DNA of 64,000 nt from Dictyostelium discoideum (lineage: Eukaryota), in the NCBI GenBank assembly GCA_000004695.1, contig CM000155.2, forward strand, positions 1,792,001 to 1,856,000, written 5' to 3'. A program made the position numbers and the translations under genes. A model generated the notes under the pieces. That model was not told the origin of the DNA and did not search any database. It was given only the letters and a program-made list of their open reading frames with translations. This document shows, one piece after another, positions 2,001-64,000 of this stretch. Numbering within the stretch: the stretch's first letter is position 1; each line of letters begins with the position of its first letter.

Positions 2001-2633
2001 AAAATATTGATAATAATATTGTAAATTTAATTGTAAATTTCCATTTACAAAATATTATACTAATTAAATAATTAAAATTATTTTTAATTTTTAATTTTAT
2101 TTCATTTTTTCTATTTACATGTCTGTTACTTGTTTTTTTAATTTATTCAATATTGATTTAATTTATTGATACGTGAGTTTGGGTAACTGATTGCATGGAA
2201 TTTGATCTCTGGCTATCATTTAATGAAAAAGAGGAGCTAATTAAAGATTTATTATCTAGATTTGGTTGAACTAATGTTTTGAATTGATTCTATATAAAAA
2301 AAAAAAAAAAAAAAATTAATATTTACTAATTATAAATATTTTTCTTTTGTTTTTTTAAATAATATTTACTGAATAACATTCTTTGATATTTGTAGTTTTT
2401 AAAAATATTTGATTTTAATTTGAATTTCTTTTTTTTTATTTTTTTTTTTATATTTTTTTTTTTTTTTACTTTTTTTTATAATTTTTTTTTTTTTAATTAG
2501 AAATTGTAAAAATTTCGGTTTCCCACACTTTATTAAAAATTAATTGAAAATTAAACAAATAAATAAATTTTTTGTTTTTTTTAAAAGGATTTGTTTATTA
2601 ATTTTCCATAAAAAAATTAAAAAATTCAAAAAT

Positions 2634-2706
2634 GCCCAGATAGCTCAGTCGGTAGAGCGCAAGGCTTTTAACCTTGTGGTCGGGGGTTCGAGCCCCCCTT
2701 TGGGCG
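2634..2706 (+). tRNA. tRNA-Lys (anticodon UUU)
   Basis: A 73-nt cloverleaf: acceptor GCCCAGA/TTTGGGC, D-arm TAGCTCAGTCGGTAGAGC, anticodon stem CAAGG/CCTTG with loop CTTTTAA, T-arm GGGGGTTCGAGCCCCC, discriminator G. A T-run follows at 2710-2713. Confidence 0.9.
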
Positions 2707-2736
2707 AATTTTACAAATTGTTTGGTGATAGATCGA

Positions 2737-9081: not shown

Positions 9082-9505
9082 TTCCTTAATTTGTGGAAAT
9101 ATAGGTGTAACTCTGTTTGTAAAATTATTATTAGATCTAGTTCTTTATTTGGAAGGAAATGGTGTAATGAATTTCTTATCAAACAAAGAAATTCATAATA
9201 TTAATAATTGTAATAGTAATAAGAATAAAGTTCATTAACAATTAAACAATAATAATTAAAATAATTATTTATTTATTTAGTTTAATGTATTTTCAGTCGA
9301 CTGAAAATTAAAAAACAGAAAAAAATTAAGCTATTTTTGATTCACGGTTTACAGATTTCTTTTTTTTTTTTTTTAATATTGGATTAACAAGATTGATATA
9401 TGTCCATCTGTGTTAATATACAGATTTCATATTATATTAATTGTGTTTAAATGTGATCAAAAAGGAATCGAACATGCGTTCCTGTTAAATTTTCTATAAA
9501 ATTAT

Positions 9506-9578
9506 CGCCTAGACATGGGATCGAACCATGGACCTAGCGGTTAACAGCCGCTCGCTCTGCCTACTGAGCCATCCAGGC
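9506..9578 (-). tRNA. tRNA-Asn (anticodon GUU)
   Basis: The reverse complement is identical to the plus-strand copy at 41377..41449: GCCTGGATGGCTCAGTAGGCAGAGCGAGCGGCTGTTAACCGCTAGGTCCATGGTTCGATCCCATGTCTAGGCG. The anticodon loop is CTGTTAA. A B-box-like GTTCGATTCC sits 33-42 nt downstream in tRNA sense (plus coordinates 9464-9473). Confidence 0.9.
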
Positions 9579-9612
9579 ATTTTTGATGTGAATTGATGAA
9601 ATATTGAAAATT

Positions 9613-41157: not shown

Positions 41158-41376
41158 AAATATAAAAAAAGATTAAAAAATTAAATAATAAAAAGGTAAA
41201 TTAAAAAATATTTTTTTAAAAAACTAACAATTCATATTATAAAAATAAATTTTTAATTATTTATTTATTAAATGTAAAAGAAATCATAAATTAAATAAAT
41301 TTATATTTTTTTTCAAGTTGATTATTTTACAATGTATATAATTTTTTTACATTTTTGGTGAAATTTCATCAAAAAT

Positions 41377-41449
41377 GCCTGGATGGCTCAGTAGGCAGAG
41401 CGAGCGGCTGTTAACCGCTAGGTCCATGGTTCGATCCCATGTCTAGGCG
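41377..41449 (+). tRNA. tRNA-Asn (anticodon GUU)
   Basis: GCCTGGATGGCTCAGTAGGCAGAGCGAGCGGCTGTTAACCGCTAGGTCCATGGTTCGATCCCATGTCTAGGCG. Acceptor GCCTGGA/TCTAGGC with one GU pair, anticodon loop CTGTTAA, T-arm CATGGTTCGATCCCATG. Confidence 0.9.
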
Positions 41450-41712
41450 ATACTTTTTTATTTTCAATATCATTTTTTTTTTTATCTTAAAAATGGATTC
41501 TCTACATCGAGACCTTTCAAAATATCAAAAATTCATCAGAATTGGCCAACGTTGAAAAAAGTTAATGCCTTTTTTTTATAATAATTAATTGATTGGTTAA
41601 AAAAAAAAAAAAAGAAATTTTTTTTTTTATTTTCACCATTTCAAAAAAAAAAAAATAAAAAACATATTGGTCTAGATTCAGTGAAATTGTTAAATTAAAA
41701 TATAAAAATAAA

Positions 41713-44360: not shown

Positions 44361-44431
44361 GCGTATGTGGTCTAGTGGTATGATGCATCCCTGCCACGGA
44401 TGCGAACTGGGTTCGATTCCCAGCATACGCA
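44361..44431 (+). tRNA. tRNA-Gly (anticodon GCC)
   Basis: GCGTATGTGGTCTAGTGGTATGATGCATCCCTGCCACGGATGCGAACTGGGTTCGATTCCCAGCATACGCA. Anticodon stem CATCC/GGATG with loop CTGCCAC, T-arm CTGGGTTCGATTCCCAG. A T6 terminator follows at 44436-44441. Confidence 0.9.
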
Positions 44432-44639
44432 CATCTTTTTTGAAGTTTACAGGATTTCCGAACTTCGGATGGGGTGAAAAATAAAGAATTTTACAAAGTT
44501 TGTCAAAACTGAAAATAAAAACATTTTTTTTGTTTTTCTAAAAAATCAATTAAGTTTTCATTCTTTCAAACAAATACCACATTGTTTTTAATTTGGATAA
44601 AATTATAATTTATAGTAAATAATAAAAAAAAAAAAAAAA

Positions 44640-45564: not shown

Positions 45565-45635
45565 TGCGTATGCTGGGAATCGAACCCAGTTCGCATCCGT
45601 GGCAGGGATGCATCATACCACTAGACCACATACGC
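45565..45635 (-). tRNA. tRNA-Gly (anticodon GCC), identical inverted copy
   Basis: An exact reverse complement of 44361..44431, placed convergently 1.1 kb away. Confidence 0.9.
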
Positions 45636-45749: not shown

Positions 45750-45995
45750 TTTTTTTTTTTTTTTTTTTTAAATATTGATTAATAACAGTTTATCAATTAA
45801 AGGAAATAAACGATATTTTAAAAGTTTTATTTATTGAATTTAATTATTTTTTTTTTGTATAGAAGTTATTCTTTTTTTGATTCGAATTTTTTTTTTTTTT
45901 TCAAAAAAGGGATTTGAACTGGTTTTTTTTTTTTTTTTACCTAAAAGCGGTGTAGGGGATTTGAACTGGTGACCTTAGTTTTTTCATTAAAAAAG

Positions 45996-46066
45996 TGCCG
46001 CGACCTGGAATCGAACCAGGGTCAACAGAGCCACAATCTGATGTACTACCACTATACTATCACGGC
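45996..46066 (-). tRNA. tRNA-His (anticodon GUG)
   Basis: The reverse complement is GCCGTGATAGTATAGTGGTAGTACATCAGATTGTGGCTCTGTTGACCCTGGTTCGATTCCAGGTCGCGGCA. The anticodon loop TTGTGGC is identical to human tRNA-His, and the T-arm is CCTGGTTCGATTCCAGG. Two B-box-like copies (CCAGTTCAAATCCC in tRNA sense) lie downstream at plus coordinates 45955..45974 and 45909..45922. Confidence 0.85.
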
Positions 46067-48464: not shown

Positions 48465-49967
48465 ATGAATAATAATATTAAACTTAATGAATTAATTTTT
48501 AATGAAATTGAACCATTATTAATTTATAATTGTTCATTTAAAAGGATATTAGAATTATCATTATTATCAAAATCAATATTTAAAAAAATTCAATATCAAA
48601 TTTCAAATCAACAAAAAGAAATTAAATTTAAACCAGAAATTAATGAATTTTTAAATTATATTTATAATTTTAAAAAAAATGATAATAATAATAAATTTAA
48701 TTCATTTAATGAACCAATAATAAATAATGAATTAATTTCAACAATTTTAAATAATAATAATAATTATAAATTTAAATTAATTCAATTTAAAGAAATTGAA
48801 AATTTAAATTGTATTAATAATAATGGTAGTTATCAAGCAAAACAAAATAATGAAAATATTAAAACCAATTTAAAAAGAATTTGTAAAAATTTAAAAACAG
48901 TTTATTATTCAAATTATTTTCCAATTGATACTTTAGATGAAGATCCAACACTTGATAATTTTTTTAATTTTGAAAAAGTTGAACTTTATTGGGACTGTGA
49001 TGAATCACCACCAGAATCATTCATTGATGAATGTGATAACCAAGATGATTATCAATCATTTAATTACTCATTTGAATTTTTAAAAAGATATAAATCAATA
49101 AAGAAAATTTCAATTAGAACTGTAGATAATGAATCAAATTTACATTTAAAAAATTTAAATAATTTATTTAAAAATATTAATAATATTAATCAATTAAATA
49201 AAATTCAATTCAATTATCAAAATACTTCATATAATTTTTTAATAAATGAAAAATTAAATAATATTAAAAATTTAAATTCATTTTCAATTAGATTAGGTAA
49301 TTTTGGTTTAAATATTATAAACGAAGAAAATGAAGAAAATCAAGAAAATGAAGATTTGGAAATATTAAATGAAATAATTAATAATAATTGTGAAAATACT
49401 TCTAAATTAATTGAAATTATTTTTAAAAATATTAACTTATTAAAAAATAATAAATTAAGGAAATTAATAATTAATAAATGTCATTCTGATGATAATGAAT
49501 TTAATTCACCAAATTCAAATAATCCATGTGAATTTTTAAAATTATTATTAAATGAAAATTATTCAATAGAAAATTTAAGAATTTTAGGTTTGGCTGTATA
49601 TGATTTAACTAAATATGATGATTTTAAATTATTATCAGAATTAATTAATAAAAATAATAAAATTAATCAATTAATTACAAATATTCAATCATTTGAACAA
49701 TTTTTAAAACATTGTAATGAAAATAAAAATATTGAAATTTTAAAAATTTCATTAGATAAATATTCAGATAATTTAGAATTATTAAATAATATAAATTGGG
49801 AAAATATTTTAAATTTAATAAATAATAATAAATCATTAAAATCAATTTATTTATATAATAATGATCAATTTGATGAAAATTTACAATTTCTAAATAATTT
49901 AAATTCATTAAAAAATAATAATAATAATAATAATTTAAATATTACAATTTTAAATAATTTTAAATAA
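48465..49967 (+). CDS. Asn/Leu-rich hypothetical protein (500 aa), leucine-rich-repeat-like
   Basis: A single ORF with very high Asn/Ile/Leu/Lys content and recurring L..L..N..L motifs. Its 3' half is duplicated in fragments downstream (51196..51427 and 52431..52880). Confidence 0.55.
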   Translation: MNNNIKLNELIFNEIEPLLIYNCSFKRILELSLLSKSIFKKIQYQISNQQKEIKFKPEINEFLNYIYNFKKNDNNNKFNSFNEPIINNELISTILNNNNNYKFKLIQFKEIENLNCINNNGSYQAKQNNENIKTNLKRICKNLKTVYYSNYFPIDTLDEDPTLDNFFNFEKVELYWDCDESPPESFIDECDNQDDYQSFNYSFEFLKRYKSIKKISIRTVDNESNLHLKNLNNLFKNINNINQLNKIQFNYQNTSYNFLINEKLNNIKNLNSFSIRLGNFGLNIINEENEENQENEDLEILNEIINNNCENTSKLIEIIFKNINLLKNNKLRKLIINKCHSDDNEFNSPNSNNPCEFLKLLLNENYSIENLRILGLAVYDLTKYDDFKLLSELINKNNKINQLITNIQSFEQFLKHCNENKNIEILKISLDKYSDNLELLNNINWENILNLINNNKSLKSIYLYNNDQFDENLQFLNNLNSLKNNNNNNNLNITILNNFK

Positions 49968-50217
49968 TTTCCCAAAAAAAAAAAAAAAAAAAAATAAAAT
50001 TATATTTATAGAATTTTTATAGTGCAATTTTTTTTTTTTTCCCAAAAATAATTTCGAGAGAAGACAAAAATAGTAAAAGTTTTGGTTTACCAAGAAAAGG
50101 TAGAGTAACAAAATATTAAAACAAATTAGGAATGACAAATAGAAATTATAATCTTAGGGAACTATGCTCAAAACAAATAATGATATATTTATTTTAATAG
50201 GGTTTTTTAATTGTTTT

Positions 50218-51195: not shown

Positions 51196-52880
51196 TGGTT
51201 TAAATATGATAAATGAAGAAAATGAAGAAAATGAAGATTTGGAAATATTAAATGAAATAATTAATAATGTGAAAATACTTCTAAATTAATTGAAATTATT
51301 TTTAAAAATATTAACTTATTAAAAAATAAAAATAATAAATTAATAATTAATAATTGATAAAGAAATTAATAATTAATAAATGTCATTCTGATGATAATGA
51401 ATTTAATTCACCAAATTCAAATAATCCTGTAACAACTGGTGGTCGGTTTCATCAGTGTTAGTTTTTCCTAATGATTTTTTTATTGTGTTGGTTATTGCTG
51501 CTGAAGTTATTGGTGTTGTAATGTTTGGGTGATGATGGTGGTGTTGAATGGTTATTTAATTGTTGTTGAGATTGTTGATTTATTAATTGAATGTGTTGTT
51601 GAAGAAGTTGATTTTGTTTATCTATTACCTGCTGATGTTCCCTTATTTGACGTTGCTGTTCATTGAATGTTGATACCTTTGGTTGTTGTTGTTGTTCCTC
51701 ATTATCCTGTTGTTGAGATTCATTATTATCAATATCTTCATTATTATTATTGTTGTTATTATTATTATTATTTGACATTCTTTTAAAATAAATTATTTAA
51801 TAAAATTGGGTTATTTATTATTATTAATTTAATTTATTGTTTTAATATTACTGAATTTATTTATTTTATTATTATAAAAATAAATGATTAATTATTTAAG
51901 AAATAAATGTACACATATATTTAATTGATGACCATATCCCTATCGCGTTTTTATTATTTTTAACTATTTATTACTGAGGTTAAATTAGAAACCTAGTTTC
52001 TTTTTATAGTCCTCAGATTTGAGCGAACTCAAATCTGTTAACTACTCCAACCTCAGCAGATAGGGTTAGATCCAATTTAAACTACAATATTATATTATTT
52101 TAATTTTTAATTAAATTATTTTTAAATTTATATTATTATTTTATATGATGATTTTGTGTGTGTGACATTTTTAATATCTGGTATATAATATCTATTGTGA
52201 AAACTTTTTTTTATTATTTTCTGAATTGTGTGTGTTATAATAAAATGTTTAAACAAAACTATATTCTAAATTATTATTATTTATTTTTTTGAATTATTAT
52301 TTAGTTGTGTTTAGTGAGTTTATTATATAAAATGAAACAATTTATTAAAATAAATTAAGTTAGTAATAATTAATATTGAATTATTAATTCAATATTAATA
52401 GTTATTTTTAAATGTTCTGTTTAGAACATTAAATGATAATTATTCAATGGCAAATTAAAGAATTTTATTTTTAGCTGTATATGATTCAACTAAAAATGAT
52501 GATGATTTTAAATTATTATCAGAGTTTATTAATAAAAATAATAAAATTAATCAATTTGTTACACATATTCACTCATTTGAACAATTTTTAAAACATTGTA
52601 ATGAAAATAAAAATATTGAAATTTTAAAAATTTCATTAGATAAATATTCAGATAATTTAGAATTATTAAATAATATAAATTTGGAAAATATTTTAAATTT
52701 AATAAATAATAATAAATCATTAAAATCAATTTATTTATATAATAATGATCAATTTGATGAAAATTTACAATTTCTAAATAATTTAAATTCATTAAAAAAT
52801 TATAATAATAATTTAAATTTTAAAATTTTAAATTTAAATAATTTTTAAAAAAAAAAAAATTATATTTATAGAATTTTTAT
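51196..52880 (+). pseudogene. fragmented duplicate of the 3' half of the 48465..49967 gene, interrupted by a roughly 1 kb insertion
   Basis: Segment 51196..51427 is about 90% identical to 49301..49530 and lacks one 9-bp gaagaaaat unit. Segment 52431..52880 is about 90% identical to 49545..50030, including the stop codon and 3' flank through tatagaatttttatag. The two pieces are contiguous in the original gene but are separated here by 51428..52430, which contains a minus-strand Q/N-rich ORF (51458..51778) and a 10-bp-stem hairpin cagatttgag-cgaa-ctcaaatctg at about 52006..52029. The identical antisense track ORFs 49675..49908 and 52559..52792 reflect this duplication. Confidence 0.7.
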
Positions 52881-55427: not shown

Positions 55428-56828
55428 TTATTTCTTTTTTTTATTTTTAGGATTTAAATTATCATTTATAGTATTTGTTGTAGTAGAAGTAGTAGAAGTG
55501 GTTGATCTTGTTATAATTTTTCTTTTTAAATTTTCTTTTTCATTTTTTAAATTTTCTTTTTCATTTTTTAATTCAATTTTTAGATTATTATTATTATTAT
55601 TTTGATTTATTTCTTTTTTAATTTTAATATTTTTTGATTTTTCTTTAAATACTGATAATTCATTTGCAAAGAGTATAGTTTGAGCCCAACCTGCATGATC
55701 ACCGAAAATAGATTCCCAAAGGTTACTAATGTCTTGATAGAGTTTTGGAGTTAATGAAGAGGAGCTGTTTGCTAGAGAGGGTAGATATTTTTTAGAGATT
55801 TGATAGATATGAGTATCGATTGCAACGGCATTTGGATTATCCATTGACATTAGTGATACGCAATCAGCGACTTTCTTACCAACACCCATTAATGTTGTCA
55901 ACTCTTTTTGTACCTCTAAATGTGGTTTTAATTTCAACTGATTTAACCATTGTTCACCACCTTTTTCAATAACTTGTTTACATGATTCAACAATGTATTT
56001 TGATCTGTACCCGAATCCAAGATCATTCAATTCTTCTACTGTCGCATTTGACAATTGACTCAATGTTGGAAATTTATAATAATCCGTGTGATTGTAATCT
56101 GTGATTTTCGAACCGTACCCCACGATTAACTTATTCACAAGTGATGTAATTCTTGAGACATTATTATTTTGTGAACAAATGAAGCTGAATAAACAGTCAA
56201 CTGGATTCTGTCTAGTTAGACGAAGTCCGATGAATTTATCACAACTTTTTCGAAATTGGTGGTTTAATTGATGAAGTTTCTTATCACCGTTGTCATCATT
56301 GCCAATTTCATCGTTTCTCCATTTTTTAAATAATTGATTAATATCTAAATCTAGATAAAAGTAATTCTGTAAAGTTGAGATCCTATCTTGCATTTTCATT
56401 AATTCACTATCATGATTTATACGTTTCTCTGAATCTATGAATTTATATTCAATAATATCTTGTTCACTACCTTCTTTATATCTTAACACAATTATATTAT
56501 CACCAATAACTCCCACATATTCATTAACTATTTCATTTATTACTATTTCTTTCCAAATAAATGATTGTGCTGAAAATAATGTTTTTTTTAAATCTAATTT
56601 ATTTTTAAATAATTTTAATTCTTCCCAATTATTATTATTATTATTATTATCATTTTCATTTTTTATTATTGGTATTTTATTGTTATTATTATTATCATCG
56701 TTTTCATTTTTTATTTTTGGAATTTTATTAGTAGTAGTAGTTGTCATTTTAAATAAAATTTCTTTTTTTGTAGTTGTTGGTATTAATATTAAAAAATTAT
56801 TAAATTGTTTAGGTATAAATCTAAACAT
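55428..56828 (-). CDS. ogg1: 8-oxoguanine DNA glycosylase / AP lyase (OGG1)
   Basis: A 466-aa ORF. The helix-hairpin-helix/GPD core LRLTRQNPVDCLFSFICSQNNNVSRITSLVNKL...LGFGYRSKYIV...LMGVGKKVADCVSLMSMDNPNAVAIDTHI...GDHAGWAQTILFANEL matches human OGG1 almost motif for motif, including the catalytic Lys in GVGKKVAD and the Asp in AIDTH. There are N- and C-terminal low-complexity extensions. Translation may begin at the second Met (MTTTTTNK). Confidence 0.9.
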   Translation of the reverse strand: MFRFIPKQFNNFLILIPTTTKKEILFKMTTTTTNKIPKIKNENDDNNNNNKIPIIKNENDNNNNNNNWEELKLFKNKLDLKKTLFSAQSFIWKEIVINEIVNEYVGVIGDNIIVLRYKEGSEQDIIEYKFIDSEKRINHDSELMKMQDRISTLQNYFYLDLDINQLFKKWRNDEIGNDDNGDKKLHQLNHQFRKSCDKFIGLRLTRQNPVDCLFSFICSQNNNVSRITSLVNKLIVGYGSKITDYNHTDYYKFPTLSQLSNATVEELNDLGFGYRSKYIVESCKQVIEKGGEQWLNQLKLKPHLEVQKELTTLMGVGKKVADCVSLMSMDNPNAVAIDTHIYQISKKYLPSLANSSSSLTPKLYQDISNLWESIFGDHAGWAQTILFANELSVFKEKSKNIKIKKEINQNNNNNNLKIELKNEKENLKNEKENLKRKIITRSTTSTTSTTTNTINDNLNPKNKKKK

Positions 56829-57017: not shown

Positions 57018-57878
57018 ATGAATTCATCATCAAATATAATTTATAAAAGTTTTAAAAATTCAAAAATATTTTTAAATAAACAATGTATTATTAATAATGG
57101 TTTAAAATTAAATAAAAAATATTTTACAACAACTTCAACAAAAGAAAATAATAATAATAATAATAATAAAAATCCAAAATTTATTGAAAATAATTTATTT
57201 CAAAAAGGATTATTAACAATTGGTAGTGCATTTGTTGCATTTATAAATCCAGGAAGAGGTGATATGGTTGCAACATTGGGTGAAATGACAGGTGGTTGTG
57301 CAATTAAATCAATGAAACAAAAGATGATGTTAGATCCAATTGGTAGACAATTGTTAAAGGAGAAACCTAGAATTAAAGAATCAACTTACCCATTGAATAT
57401 ACATTTATTACCATCAACTACATTTGGTGGTGCATACTATAGATGGATGAAAGAACATGGTTATTCACCTGATGAAAGAACAGAGGTTACTTTGATTCAA
57501 GATGAAGATGATGCTTACGTTATGCAAAGGTATAGAGAAGTACATGATTTTTGGCATGTCCTTGCCGGTGTTAGACCAGATTTTCAAGGTGAAGTTGCAA
57601 TAAAATGGTTTGAATTCTTACAAACTGGTTTACCAATGAATGCTATCGGTTCAATTATAGGTCCATTACGTTGTTCTTGGAATGAAAGAAACGAATTAAT
57701 CAATCATATGATACCATGGGCTATAAAATCTTCAAAATCTTGTGTTTATCTAATGAATGTCAAATATGAAGATCATTGGGAAGATGATCTTAATGAATTT
57801 AGGGCTAAATTAAATTTTATACCTTATAAATATTTATCTGATATTAATCAAAATAAAACGACAACTATCAATATGTAA
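57018..57878 (+). CDS. coq4: ubiquinone biosynthesis protein COQ4
   Basis: A 286-aa single ORF with the COQ4 zinc-ligand motif HDxxH-x11-E: [38 protein letters not shown]. There is a basic, hydroxylated N-terminus consistent with mitochondrial targeting. Confidence 0.9.
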
Positions 57879-57960
57879 TAAAATGAAATTATTTAAAAAT
57901 AATAAAAAAACAAAAATAAATAAAAAGAGGAAATTAAAAAAAAAAAAAAAAAAAAAAAAT

Positions 57961-58850
57961 CTCAACCTCTTTCTTCAACATCTCAACCTCTTTCTCCTCG
58001 TAATACCAACAAAATCTCTTCTCTATGGGAATTGATTCAATTCCAATACTACATACTTTTTCACCTCTTTGATTTTCAACTTTCATTATTTCCAAATTTG
58101 TTCAATTCCTCCTCAAATCCCTATCATCCCAATCTTAAATACAGACATGAAATGCAATTGTAAACTTTATTACAACTTCATCTTCAATCATCTCTCTCAT
58201 CGTATTAAAAGAATGATTCTATTTCAAAAACATCAATCGTGAAGCAATCATCGACAAATGGTCAAACCTTTACATTCCTCCAAAAATGAAAAGAAATTGT
58301 TGGCACAAAAGATTACATTACCTATCAAAGACTCTCCATCTCTATAAAACAATACAACCAGAGAAGCTATTTGTCCCGACTGTCCAGTGACTTCCTTGCA
58401 GCCTCTTCAATCAGGTCATGCAACCCCGTTATAAACTATTCCAACTATTACGGTATATTCAATTACTATACTTTGAAGCCTTTAACAAACATCCAATCAA
58501 CAATGTTAATTACTGGAAACATTATTGGTCACCAATAGTGACCAAATTAATATAGATTTAAATCCAAAGACTACTGATACACTCTGGACTGTATAATGAT
58601 TATTACCATCTCTGGAAGTCATATACTAACCATGTCTTTGGTAATCAAAGATATACCACTGAAAGAGTACTGCTCAACACATACAAATCCATTGAATTCA
58701 TACAACTCAAGGAAAATCAACGTACTGAATTCAACAAGAACTTCACAAATCCCTCTTTCCATATTAATTTCTAATCACAACTTTAAAAGATTTCATTCTG
58801 TTTTTTTAAAAATTAAATCCAAAACAAAAATAAAAAAAAATAAAAAAATC
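57961..58850. other. compositionally anomalous non-coding island: C-rich, G-poor on the plus strand, with no long ORF
   Basis: About 0.9 kb in which the plus strand is pyrimidine-rich (ctcaacctctttcttcaacatctcaacctctttctcctcg...), with G around 8% and C around 25%. This is unlike flanking DNA, where A+T is about 80% and homopolymers are common. Stop codons are frequent in all frames. It lies between coq4 and the PH-domain gene. Confidence 0.5.
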
Positions 58851-59061
58851 TGATCAGATTTTTTTAAAAGAAAATTGGTTCGATAAAAAAAAAAATGGTT
58901 TTTTTATGATATTTATTTCTGGGTTTGAAAATATCTTTTTTTTTTCTACTAACAAAACATGTTTTGTTTTTTTTTAATTTTATTTTATTTTTTTTTTTAT
59001 TTTTTTTTATTTTTCTTTATTTTTTATTTTTTATTAAATATCTCCAACCGTCATTTAAAAG

Positions 59062-59101
<40 letters not shown>

Positions 59102-59268
59102 AAAAAACCATTTTTAAAATTTTTATTTTTTTAATTTTTTTTGTACAAAACACAATATTCGCACAACGCATTTCATAAAAACAAATTAAAAACCTATCTA
59201 TTTTTTCTTTTTTTTTTTTTATTTTTTTTTATTTATTTTTATATATTTATTTATAAAAAAAAAAAAAA

Positions 59269-61150
59269 ATGGATTGTGTTATTACAAGTGGATGGTTACA
59301 AAAATGGTCATCAAAAGTTTTATCAGAAAGTGAAAGATCAATTTTGGATAGATCATGTTCCGGTACTTATCATTCATCAATGGCAACACATGGAGAAGGT
59401 TCTTTAAAAGCAAGATGGTTTATATTACAAAATGATTTTTTAAATTATTATGATAGGCCACCTGTAAGTTTTTTAAATTTATTAAAAAATAAATAAAAAA
59501 AAAAGAAATTAAATTTAAAATTACTAATTTTTTTTTTTTTCTTTTTTTTTTTCTTTTATTTATTTAAAAAAAAAAAAGAAAAAAATTCAAGATTATACAT
59601 GCTTAAAAGGTCAAATTTATTTAAGAGGATGTAAATTAAAACATGGAGGATTAATAACACCAATATATCAACATTGGTCAATTGGAGTTGCACCAAATAC
59701 ATCAGGTAGTAATCAAGTTTGGAAATCAATAGTTGATCAACATCAAGTGAATGGACAAATGACAATATCATTGGTTACACCAAATGGTGTGGAATATTCA
59801 TTCACCAATATGGGAGGATTGACAAATGAAGATACAATTAAAAATTTAGAGAATTGGGCATACTCAATTTCTTATGCAATCTTTTTATCAAATAAAACTA
59901 AAGATGAACCAATGTGTGGTTGGTTAAATAAACGTGGTGAGAAAGGTCATCAATTTAAAAATACAAAACGTCGTTGGTGTACACTTCAAGGTACAAAGTT
60001 ACGTTATTTCTCTTCAATTCCAAAACATAATAAAATCGGTTCACTTAAAGGTATAATAGATTTAACTCATCTTTCAGAGATTGCTGATAAAGTATTAACA
60101 GAAGTACGTTCTAAAAATGGTACATTGGTTAGTAATGGTAATCAAGATTGGAATGCTCAAAAACCATTAACCAATGGTATAGGTAGTAGTGGAGGTGGAG
60201 GTGGTTTAGATTGTTTTGGTAATAATAATCAAAGTTTTAGTTCTTCTTCTTCTTCACCCTCATCATCATCTACAACAATATCATCTTCACCAAATAATAA
60301 TTCGTCATCATCGTCATCAATACAAGAATTTGATGAAGTTTCAACTATTGTAGCATTATCATTAACAATAAATAATGAGAAAAAGTATGTTTTAATTTTC
60401 GATAATAAAGAGGATAGAATTAAATGGGTAAATGCAATTACAGCAGCAGTTGAGAAATCATATACATCTGGTAATGCATTGGCAGAGACAGTTGGAGGTG
60501 GTGATGTTTTTCAAAGTATAAATAATAATAATGATAAGCAAGTGTTGGTATCAGGTTGGATGAGAAAAACTAAAGCAAACAAATGGTGGGAGAAAAGATT
60601 TTTCCAACTTACACAAAATAGTTTAATCTACTACAAAGAGGATCCACCTCAGAAAACATTGGGTTCAATATTTCTATTGGTTTCATCATGTAGAATTATA
60701 AAACAAAAGAGTTTAGATTCTTTGGATTGGTGTTTTAGTATAGCCGATAGTAGAGGTGTAGAATACTTTTTCAATACAGAAACTTCCGATCAAATGGAAC
60801 GTTGGATTAAAGCAATTAAAGTTGCTAGAAAAAAAATGTTATTATCATTATTGGATCAAGGTGGTAAATTAATCATTCCAATTACAATTGGTAAGGATTG
60901 TGGTTTAATCACTGTTCAAACTAAAGAATCAATTCGTGTAAACTCTCTTTCTAATAAATTGGCATTTGAAATTCCAATGCCAAATGTAAAGTCAGTTTCA
61001 GTTTCAGGTGATCAAAAATTAGATGTTTCTTTCTTACCTTTGGATGGTGAAGTTTCTGAAAAAAAAGTGGAATTTATAACTCAAAATCCACATGGTGTAT
61101 TACAATTATTTAAAGATTTATTCTCTTCTCAAGAAAATACTATAAATTAA
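59269..61150 (+). CDS. pleckstrin-homology (PH) domain protein with three PH-like modules
   Basis: Two exons: join(59269..59463, 59579..61150), about 588 aa. Exon 1 encodes MDCVITSGWLQKWSSKVLSESERSILDRS...KARWFILQNDFLNYYDRPP, then a GTAAGT donor. The acceptor is aaaAG at 59577-59578. The second module PMCGWLNKRGEKGHQFKNTKRRWCTLQGTKLRYFSS and the third VLVSGWMRKTKANKWWEKRFFQLTQNSLIYYKED...MERWIKAIKVARKKM have canonical PH signatures: GWL.K, W, and a C-terminal helix with W. Confidence 0.8.

Positions 61151-61348: not shown

Positions 61349-64000
<2,652 letters not shown>

Follow-up and report, generated by a model that had tools for sequence, protein, structure and literature searches.

The D. 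discoideum gene coq4 and a neighbouring PH-domain gene are separated by a spacer that contains a compositionally distinct island of about 0.9 kb. The window, that is, the whole 64-kb stretch of DNA analysed here, carries at 57018–57878 an open reading frame that is exactly the COQ4 of D. discoideum AX4 (XP_629528 / Q54CZ2), and coq4 corresponds to DDB_G0292620 (table in PMC11237637). An 8-oxoguanine glycosylase gene occupies 55428–56828 on the minus strand, and the PH-domain gene starts at 59269. The tRNA gene nearest to the island is 11.9 kb away.

Several other features of the region deserve mention. Six tRNA genes are present in the window (2633–2707, 9505–9579, 41376–41450, 44361–44432, 45565–45635, and 45995–46066). 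External B boxes accompany several of them, for example, at 9464, 45910, and 45957, and no reverse transcriptase (RT)-like sequence was found near any of the six. TRE elements reportedly occur at 61% of D. discoideum tRNA genes. A local duplication joins 49328–49986 and 51211–52859, which lie about 2–3 kb apart and share 87–92% identity (in pieces of 202–220 bp and 432–440 bp); the duplicated segments involve the gene or genes upstream of 53104. Within the coq4-PH spacer itself, three short blocks are near-invariant among D. discoideum, D. citrinum, and D. firmibasis, while their surroundings are fluid, A/T-rich DNA. These blocks (~58905–58935, atgatatttatttctgggtttgaaaatatc; ~59036–59060, aaatatctccaaccgtca; and ~59150–59185, caatattcgcacaacgcatttcataaaaacaaat) are, from their conservation and position, probably promoter elements of the PH-domain gene.

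The compositional island is real. Its core (57961–58790) consists of A 0.355, C 0.237, G 0.093, and T 0.314, with a GC content of 33%, a GC skew of −0.44, and no homopolymer longer than 5, while the whole window has C 0.117 and G 0.112. A preliminary description, which had put C above 20%, was thus correct on this point (23.7% in the core against 11.7% in the window), but ‘almost devoid of G’ was an overstatement (9.3% against 11.2%). Since C is doubled and G stays near the genome average, the strand asymmetry stems from C. The same description had reported that homopolymers are absent, which holds for the core but not for the last 50 bases of the range it covered (58801–58850). These comprise T7, A9, and A7 runs and belong to an A-rich tail and a target-site duplication. 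The surrounding context, given as 80% A+T, was measured at 86–90% A+T in the island flanks. Among 830-bp windows in the 64 kb, the island ranks third for negative skew, and it is the largest GC-rich stretch in the window that lacks a long open frame. Its composition is unusual, not unique.

The claimed absence of open reading frames also stands, in that no stop-free stretch of the island exceeds 91 codons. Yet stops are depleted on the plus strand, where the window allele has 32 against 44.9 in dinucleotide shuffles (P=0.0025), and the allele of another D. discoideum strain (L006) shows the same deficit (P=0.001). On the minus strand, there are 68 stops against 70 in shuffles, and hence no deficit. 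The D. cf. discoideum allele L007 retains an open frame of 122 codons (P=0.017). Automated annotation has also placed coding sequence here. Assembly GCA_054883475.1 has a 99-aa two-exon gene model within the island (L001 11130–11521, or about 58147–58538 of the window), and in assembly GCA_054859355.1, a COQ4 model of 347 aa reaches into the island via a presumed intron (L006 6001–7222). Both models are probably ab initio annotation artefacts on a decayed repeat.

Orthologous coq4 loci were compared across seven other genomes, taken from a 90%-identity COQ4 cluster. Three of these are D. discoideum strains (L001, L004, and L006), two are D. cf. discoideum (L005 and L007), and the remaining two are D. 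citrinum (L003) and D. firmibasis (L002). L001 is 99.8% identical to the window. At 1390 bp, the coq4-PH spacer of the window is longer than that of D. citrinum (469 bp) or D. firmibasis (435 bp), and the entire length difference maps to 57963–58841 in both blastn and MAFFT alignments. This insert is missing from D. firmibasis and D. citrinum, which therefore represent empty sites, and is present, with differing deletions, in the window and in all five of the D. discoideum-clade genomes. COQ4 substitution identity to the window is 96.5–98.5% among clade members and drops to 92.4% in D. citrinum and 89.4% in D. firmibasis; by this measure, D. citrinum is the sister and D. firmibasis the outgroup. 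Because the insert occurs in every clade member and in neither of the outgroups, a single gain on the D. discoideum-clade stem is the parsimonious explanation. On the evidence of these alignments, the insertion dates to that stem, after the split from D. citrinum.

The anatomy of the insert is summarised in Table 1.

Table 1. The insert in the coq4-PH spacer and its junctions, in window coordinates.
Feature	Position	Strand	Description and basis
Left target-site duplication	57936–57962	+	A24 then TCT; runs on from the original coq4 3′ flank, ...AAGAGGAAATT-A(n)-TCT
Tandem duplication of 21-bp period	57956–57995	+	Two ATCTCAACCTCTTTCT units at the insert's 5′ end; repeat search
Insert body	57963–58789	+ (sense)	C-rich, G-poor, 33% GC; stop deficit on the plus strand only
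Block 1 common to the chromosome-3 copy	58099–58229	+	78–79% identity; nhmmer
Segment deleted in L004 and L006	58268–58537	+	About 270 bp; blastn, MAFFT
Blocks 2 and 3 common to the chromosome-3 copy	58514–58790	+	75–80% identity, to the common 3′ end ...ATTAATTTCTAAYCMMAACYTTAAAA; nhmmer
A/T-rich 3′ tail	58790–58841	+	Decayed oligo(A), merging into the A run of the right duplication; read from the sequence
Right target-site duplication	58842–58851	+	A7TCT
Perfect palindrome	58841–58866		13+13 nt, TAAAAAAATCTGA/TCAGATTTTTTTA; inverted-repeat search

The junctions can be read against the two empty sites. The D. firmibasis site is AAGAGGAAA-A(12)-TCT-AAAGATTTTTTT and that of D. citrinum is A(n)TCT-AAACAGATTTTTT, each with a single A(n)TCT. 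The filled site is AAGAGGAAATT-A(24)-TCT-(insert)-A-rich tail-A(7)TCT-GATCAGATTTTTTT, and A(n)TCT is found at both junctions in all five D. discoideum-clade alleles. As the target-site duplication is of low complexity (an A run plus three specific bases), its exact length is uncertain, at about 10–16 bp. The A-rich tail is confined to the 3′ end of the plus strand. Together with the empty sites, a duplication that starts with A and a one-sided A-rich tail form a signature of target-primed reverse transcription, with the nick in a T-rich bottom strand. The insert has no terminal inverted repeats, as the only inverted pairs at its ends are A/T runs.

Imperfect versions of the palindrome at 58841–58866 occur in the same place at the D. 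citrinum and D. firmibasis empty sites. Judging from this shared position, the palindrome is a pre-existing target, and the insertion is in its left arm. It is also the sole Rfam match in the spacer, a sub-threshold one to the terminator-like hairpin SpF36 (E=0.25) that falls outside the insert, and it may be a conserved 3′-end or terminator-like element for coq4. At the other end of the insert, ATCTCAACCTCTTTCT is single-copy in L005 and L007, and the 21-bp tandem duplication is confined to part of the clade. By this distribution, the duplication arose after the insertion.

Sequence related to the island was found elsewhere in the genome, which was sampled via the multi-copy actin gene. This added six 21-kb loci (about 105 kb unrelated to the coq4 locus) and brought the scope of the copy search to about 170–190 kb in all. 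A second copy lies on the minus strand at L008 3965–4628 and at the orthologous L013 3107–4054. It adjoins DDB_G0280721 on AX4 chromosome 3, and its flanks are unrelated to the coq4 locus. The island and this copy share three collinear blocks, with nhmmer E values from 6e-11 to 8e-5 and about 75–80% identity. The individual matches include 58124–58229 (E=6e-11) and 58623–58788 (E=1e-7) against L008, and 58099–58222 (E=3e-6) and 58514–58635 (E=1.6e-7) against L013. At its 3′ end, the second copy has the identical terminal motif ATTAATTTCTAAYCMMAACYTTAAAA, followed by an A-rich tail. It lacks 58222–58515, nearly the same stretch as is deleted in L004 and L006, and the 5′ region of L013 aligns to L006 contiguously across the deletion gap.

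The chromosome-3 copy is stop-ridden, and where it differs from the island, the mismatches are not biased by codon position (P=0.42). The 5′ 140–430 bp of the two copies have no detectable similarity, no target-site duplication was resolved for the second copy, and the 21 kb around it contain no tRNA gene. It also carries a secondary insertion of about 560 bp (L013 3252–3800, minus strand; L008 4153–4439), made up of a (CAAA)n microsatellite and a G-rich, serine-repeat coding-like piece. The repeat part resembles Ser-rich coding repeats such as those in the long gene at 61349–63763 of the window.

Since the second copy is on an unlinked chromosome and has unrelated flanks, the island belongs to a dispersed family. 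Finding one further copy in about 105 kb, although a single observation, suggests that this family is not rare. The preliminary description had proposed that a multi-copy match would make the island a repeat; the copy beside DDB_G0280721 does so, without naming the family.

The insert has decayed differently in each lineage. L004 lacks 58025–58154 and 58268–58537, L006 lacks 58268–58525, and L005 has many smaller gaps across the island. L007 keeps the first 100–160 bp, followed by about 290–390 bp of unique sequence, and everything from about 58153 to the tail is gone. Overall, the deletions that differ between strains span 130–650 bp. Substitution-only identity between the window and L004, L006, L005, and L007 is 94, 92.6, 85.6, and 82%, respectively, in the island, compared with 97.3, 97.8, 96.2, and 94.6% in the adjacent spacer, and the flanking coding sequences (COQ4 and the PH-domain exon) are 96.5–99% identical to the window. 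The island changes at 2–4 times the rate of the neighbouring spacer and is the fastest stretch in the region. When changes are polarised, the counts are small, but per site the island still changes about twice as fast as the spacer beside it, with an about twofold excess of GC-to-AT changes. Because the island evolves faster than the spacer next to it, it is unconstrained. As these alleles read, the insert has no detectable function and is undergoing piecemeal removal by deletion.

One part of the L007 allele stands apart. This D. cf. discoideum allele, the most basal of the set, contains about 290 bp of C-rich, G-poor sequence (L007 7121–7412) that forms part of the 122-codon frame. Neither the other alleles nor the chromosome-3 copy contain any recognisable counterpart of this segment, and no internal duplication was found in L007. 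The segment probably belonged to the original insert and was lost in the other lineages.

The island is therefore an ordinary genomic fossil: an inert, eroding repeat copy with no sign of a working non-coding RNA gene. It is probably the relic of one retroposition event, in which the polyadenylated RNA of a dispersed repeat was inserted into the coq4/PH-domain spacer, with target-primed reverse transcription as the most likely route. An endonuclease would have nicked the T-rich bottom strand of the A(n)TCT...AGAT(n) palindrome. The T run could then have acted as primer for cDNA synthesis on the A tail, and repair of a staggered second nick would have duplicated A(n)TCT. The sequence comparisons show an insertion relative to the empty sites, a target-site duplication, an A tail confined to the 3′ end, a second copy, and a lack of constraint; from these, we infer the reverse-transcription mechanism and the source of the enzyme. 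To our knowledge, the ORF2 of TREs is the only source of RT and endonuclease for poly(A) retroposition in D. discoideum. The preliminary description had offered two readings of the island. That of a mobile-element remnant or complex-repeat segment agrees with the lineage-specific insert, its duplication and 3′ A-rich tail, and the paralogous copy, while that of a long non-coding or structured RNA gene fares poorly, as set out below.

The identity of the inserted repeat is less clear than the manner of its arrival. Protein-level searches returned nothing informative. There was no Pfam match for any plus-strand frame, a stitched frame, the L007 and L005 alleles, or the L013 5′ region. Large protein collections gave no match at E<=1–10 for frame 2, for the six frames concatenated, or for the 122-codon frame of L007, and the collection searched includes the AX4 proteome (COQ4, OGG1, actin, and DDB_G0280721 were all found there). 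A HMMER search with the 70-aa stop-free frame-2 peptide against 1.84 billion representatives produced one match, to a tandem-repeat metazoan-like protein, which was judged to be due to chance. The PDB sequence search with L007 and L013 translations yielded no LINE or RT match. No RT-like sequence was present in the window or the fetched loci, no TRE copy in roughly 250 kb, and no APE, RT, or zinc-finger similarity was detectable in the island family. A metagenome scan with the 3′ motif of the family found nothing, and a full-text literature search with the same motif found an unrelated primer only. That no match emerges at a divergence of only about 10–20% implies that the source was non-coding, or that the family has no intact members among predicted proteins.

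Faint resemblance to a LINE protein was nevertheless seen using human L1 ORF2p, the query sequence of which was checked against PDB 8UW3/8C8J. The L007 stretch ‘KTPGPESLSNELYKT..VPILLK’ resembles L1 ORF2p 462–496 (E 0.005–0.026), and the L013 stretch ‘SL*ADET...SGLKLNIDKS’ resembles 684–749 (E 0.24), both marginal matches that were picked out after the motifs had been noticed and scored in a deliberately tiny search space. A second weak match of L007 to L1 ORF2p is not collinear with the first, and the L007 and L013 matches are not mutually collinear either. Two more specific assignments were set aside. One, which placed the sequence at the C-terminal end of a LINE ORF2 (‘IPPKMK..W’, CxxC, ‘W..RN..F’), was not confirmed. 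The other, of L007 to RT ‘domain 0’, clashes with the position implied by the ‘YADD/SGLxxNxxKS’-like stretch of L013, and the L007 and L013 placements alike are unproven. If the two copies are considered as fragments of a non-LTR (LINE) element, their 3′ ends coincide, but their 5′ parts have no detectable homology, which would be unexpected for two 5′-truncated copies of one LINE. The proposal that the inserted RNA derived from the 3′ portion of an old non-LTR element is tentative, with the balance somewhat against it.

The most serious competing explanation shares the mechanism of retroposition and differs in novelty only. The island could be a truncated or rearranged copy of a catalogued D. 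discoideum complex repeat, such as the 3′ end of TRE3 or TRE5, or H3R, thug, or DDT-S. One further copy in about 105 kb around actin genes hints at tens to hundreds of copies in the genome, and families so abundant were catalogued long ago (Glockner 2001, cited in PMC5006619). TREs also end in oligo(A) and are often 5′-truncated (PMC5911963). Against this, the non-LTR elements of D. discoideum, which constitute 3.7% of the genome, are all TREs, and these integrate exclusively beside tRNA genes, about 50 bp upstream (TRE5) or 40–150 bp downstream (TRE3) (PMC5006619, PMC5911963). The distance of the nearest tRNA gene from the island, and the lack of any around the second copy, do not fit this pattern, and the coq4-PH spacer has no B box at <=2 mismatches. 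With no tRNA gene or B box near either copy, this is not a typical TRE insertion. Moreover, a coding transposable element at about 10–20% divergence should match its ORF, and no protein similarity was found. A catalogued repeat is thus possible but rather unlikely.

If no catalogued family accounts for the two copies, they could represent an undescribed, non-tRNA-targeting retroposon family that was active after the split from D. citrinum, either an extinct LINE lineage or a non-autonomous element of ~1 kb that TRE enzymes mobilised in trans. This suggestion is speculative, and its chances are modest.

The inserted RNA might instead have been a cellular polyadenylated transcript, an mRNA or lncRNA retrocopied in trans by the TRE reverse transcriptase, in which case the locus on chromosome 3 would represent either its parent gene or a further retrocopy. 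Such an event would account equally well for the duplication, the A tail at the 3′ end, and the shortage of stops on the sense strand, and only two loci are known so far, with about 170–190 kb screened. Such an origin is nonetheless improbable. No frame matches any D. discoideum protein, even though the AX4 proteome was included in the search. The chromosome-3 copy is itself stop-ridden, with a secondary insertion and an A-rich tail, and DDB_G0280721 is not listed as a flanking gene of any lncRNA model (neighbour table in PMC5295588).

That the island is a working RNA gene peculiar to D. discoideum, whether long non-coding or structured, is far less probable than that it is a decaying repeat copy. 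The island does lack a long ORF, one assembly places a gene model on it, and its plus strand folds slightly better than shuffled sequence. The folding z-scores are −2.7 for the plus strand and −1.9 for the minus strand (20 shuffles), which is unremarkable for 840 nt, and the 99-aa model is a two-exon ab initio construct over stop-ridden sequence. Rfam gave no match at the gathering score and nothing relevant at E<=1. D. discoideum lncRNAs have a median GC content of 17%, compared with 25% for ORFs (PMC5295588), while the island has 33%; coq4 and five adjacent even-numbered gene IDs flank no lncRNA in the neighbour table of the same study. The alleles miss 130–650 bp in differing places, and the island is the fastest-evolving stretch in the region. 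A conserved fold is impossible in alleles with such large deletions, and these, together with the absence of the island from sister species, make a functional RNA gene very unlikely.

An insertion by some non-retro route (a DNA transposon, or filler DNA captured in double-strand-break repair), or an ancestral sequence lost independently from D. citrinum and D. firmibasis, is highly improbable. The low-complexity duplication is compatible with microhomology-mediated capture, but the insert lacks the terminal inverted repeats of a DNA transposon or MITE (DDT, Tdd, thug), its tail is one-ended, and its duplication opens with consecutive A residues, which is what a T-rich nick serving as primer would leave. 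With D. citrinum as sister (92.4%) and D. firmibasis as outgroup (89.4%), two precise deletions that each restored a single A(n)TCT would be unparsimonious.

As the probable relic of a retroposed repeat, the island is of little weight for biology at large. It nevertheless offers a lesson for annotation, namely that a stretch which catches the eye by its composition in an AT-rich genome can be a decaying retroposed repeat. The insertion also serves as a datable marker of clear polarity, shared by the D. discoideum clade but missing from D. citrinum and D. firmibasis, and it illustrates the pace at which deletion erodes neutral, GC-richer DNA in the D. discoideum genome. Specialist interest lies in the fact that both known copies are remote from tRNA genes. 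Should the family turn out to be uncatalogued, it would show that this gene-dense genome has undergone and tolerated retroposition beyond the ‘safe havens’ of tRNA-gene targeting. An undescribed non-tRNA-targeting family, if real, would be the first exception among the described non-LTR elements of D. discoideum.

Several known systems can be compared with the island. The intergenic lncRNAs of D. discoideum (Rosengarten et al. 2016, PMC5295588) are similar in being intergenic, about 1 kb long, and without an ORF, but they differ in median GC content (17% against 33%), and the island is absent from sister species and has strain-specific deletions. TRE3 and TRE5, which belong to the L1 clade, likewise have oligo(A) ends and target-site duplications and are often incomplete (PMC5006619, PMC5911963), but they are found beside tRNA genes, whereas neither copy of the island family is near a tRNA gene or B box. 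The NLTR elements of D. purpureum and P. pallidum are dictyostelid non-LTR elements that do not belong to the TREs (PMC5006619). [quoted passage not shown] Mammalian L1 insertions involve another host and another enzyme, and the resemblance of the island family to L1 ORF2p is marginal (E 0.005–0.24). In form, 5′-truncated L1 copies and L1-processed pseudogenes are nevertheless like the island: they share a duplication of about 10–16 bp that starts with A, a nick in T-rich sequence, an A tail at the 3′ end, a relic of the sense strand, and neutral decay after insertion.
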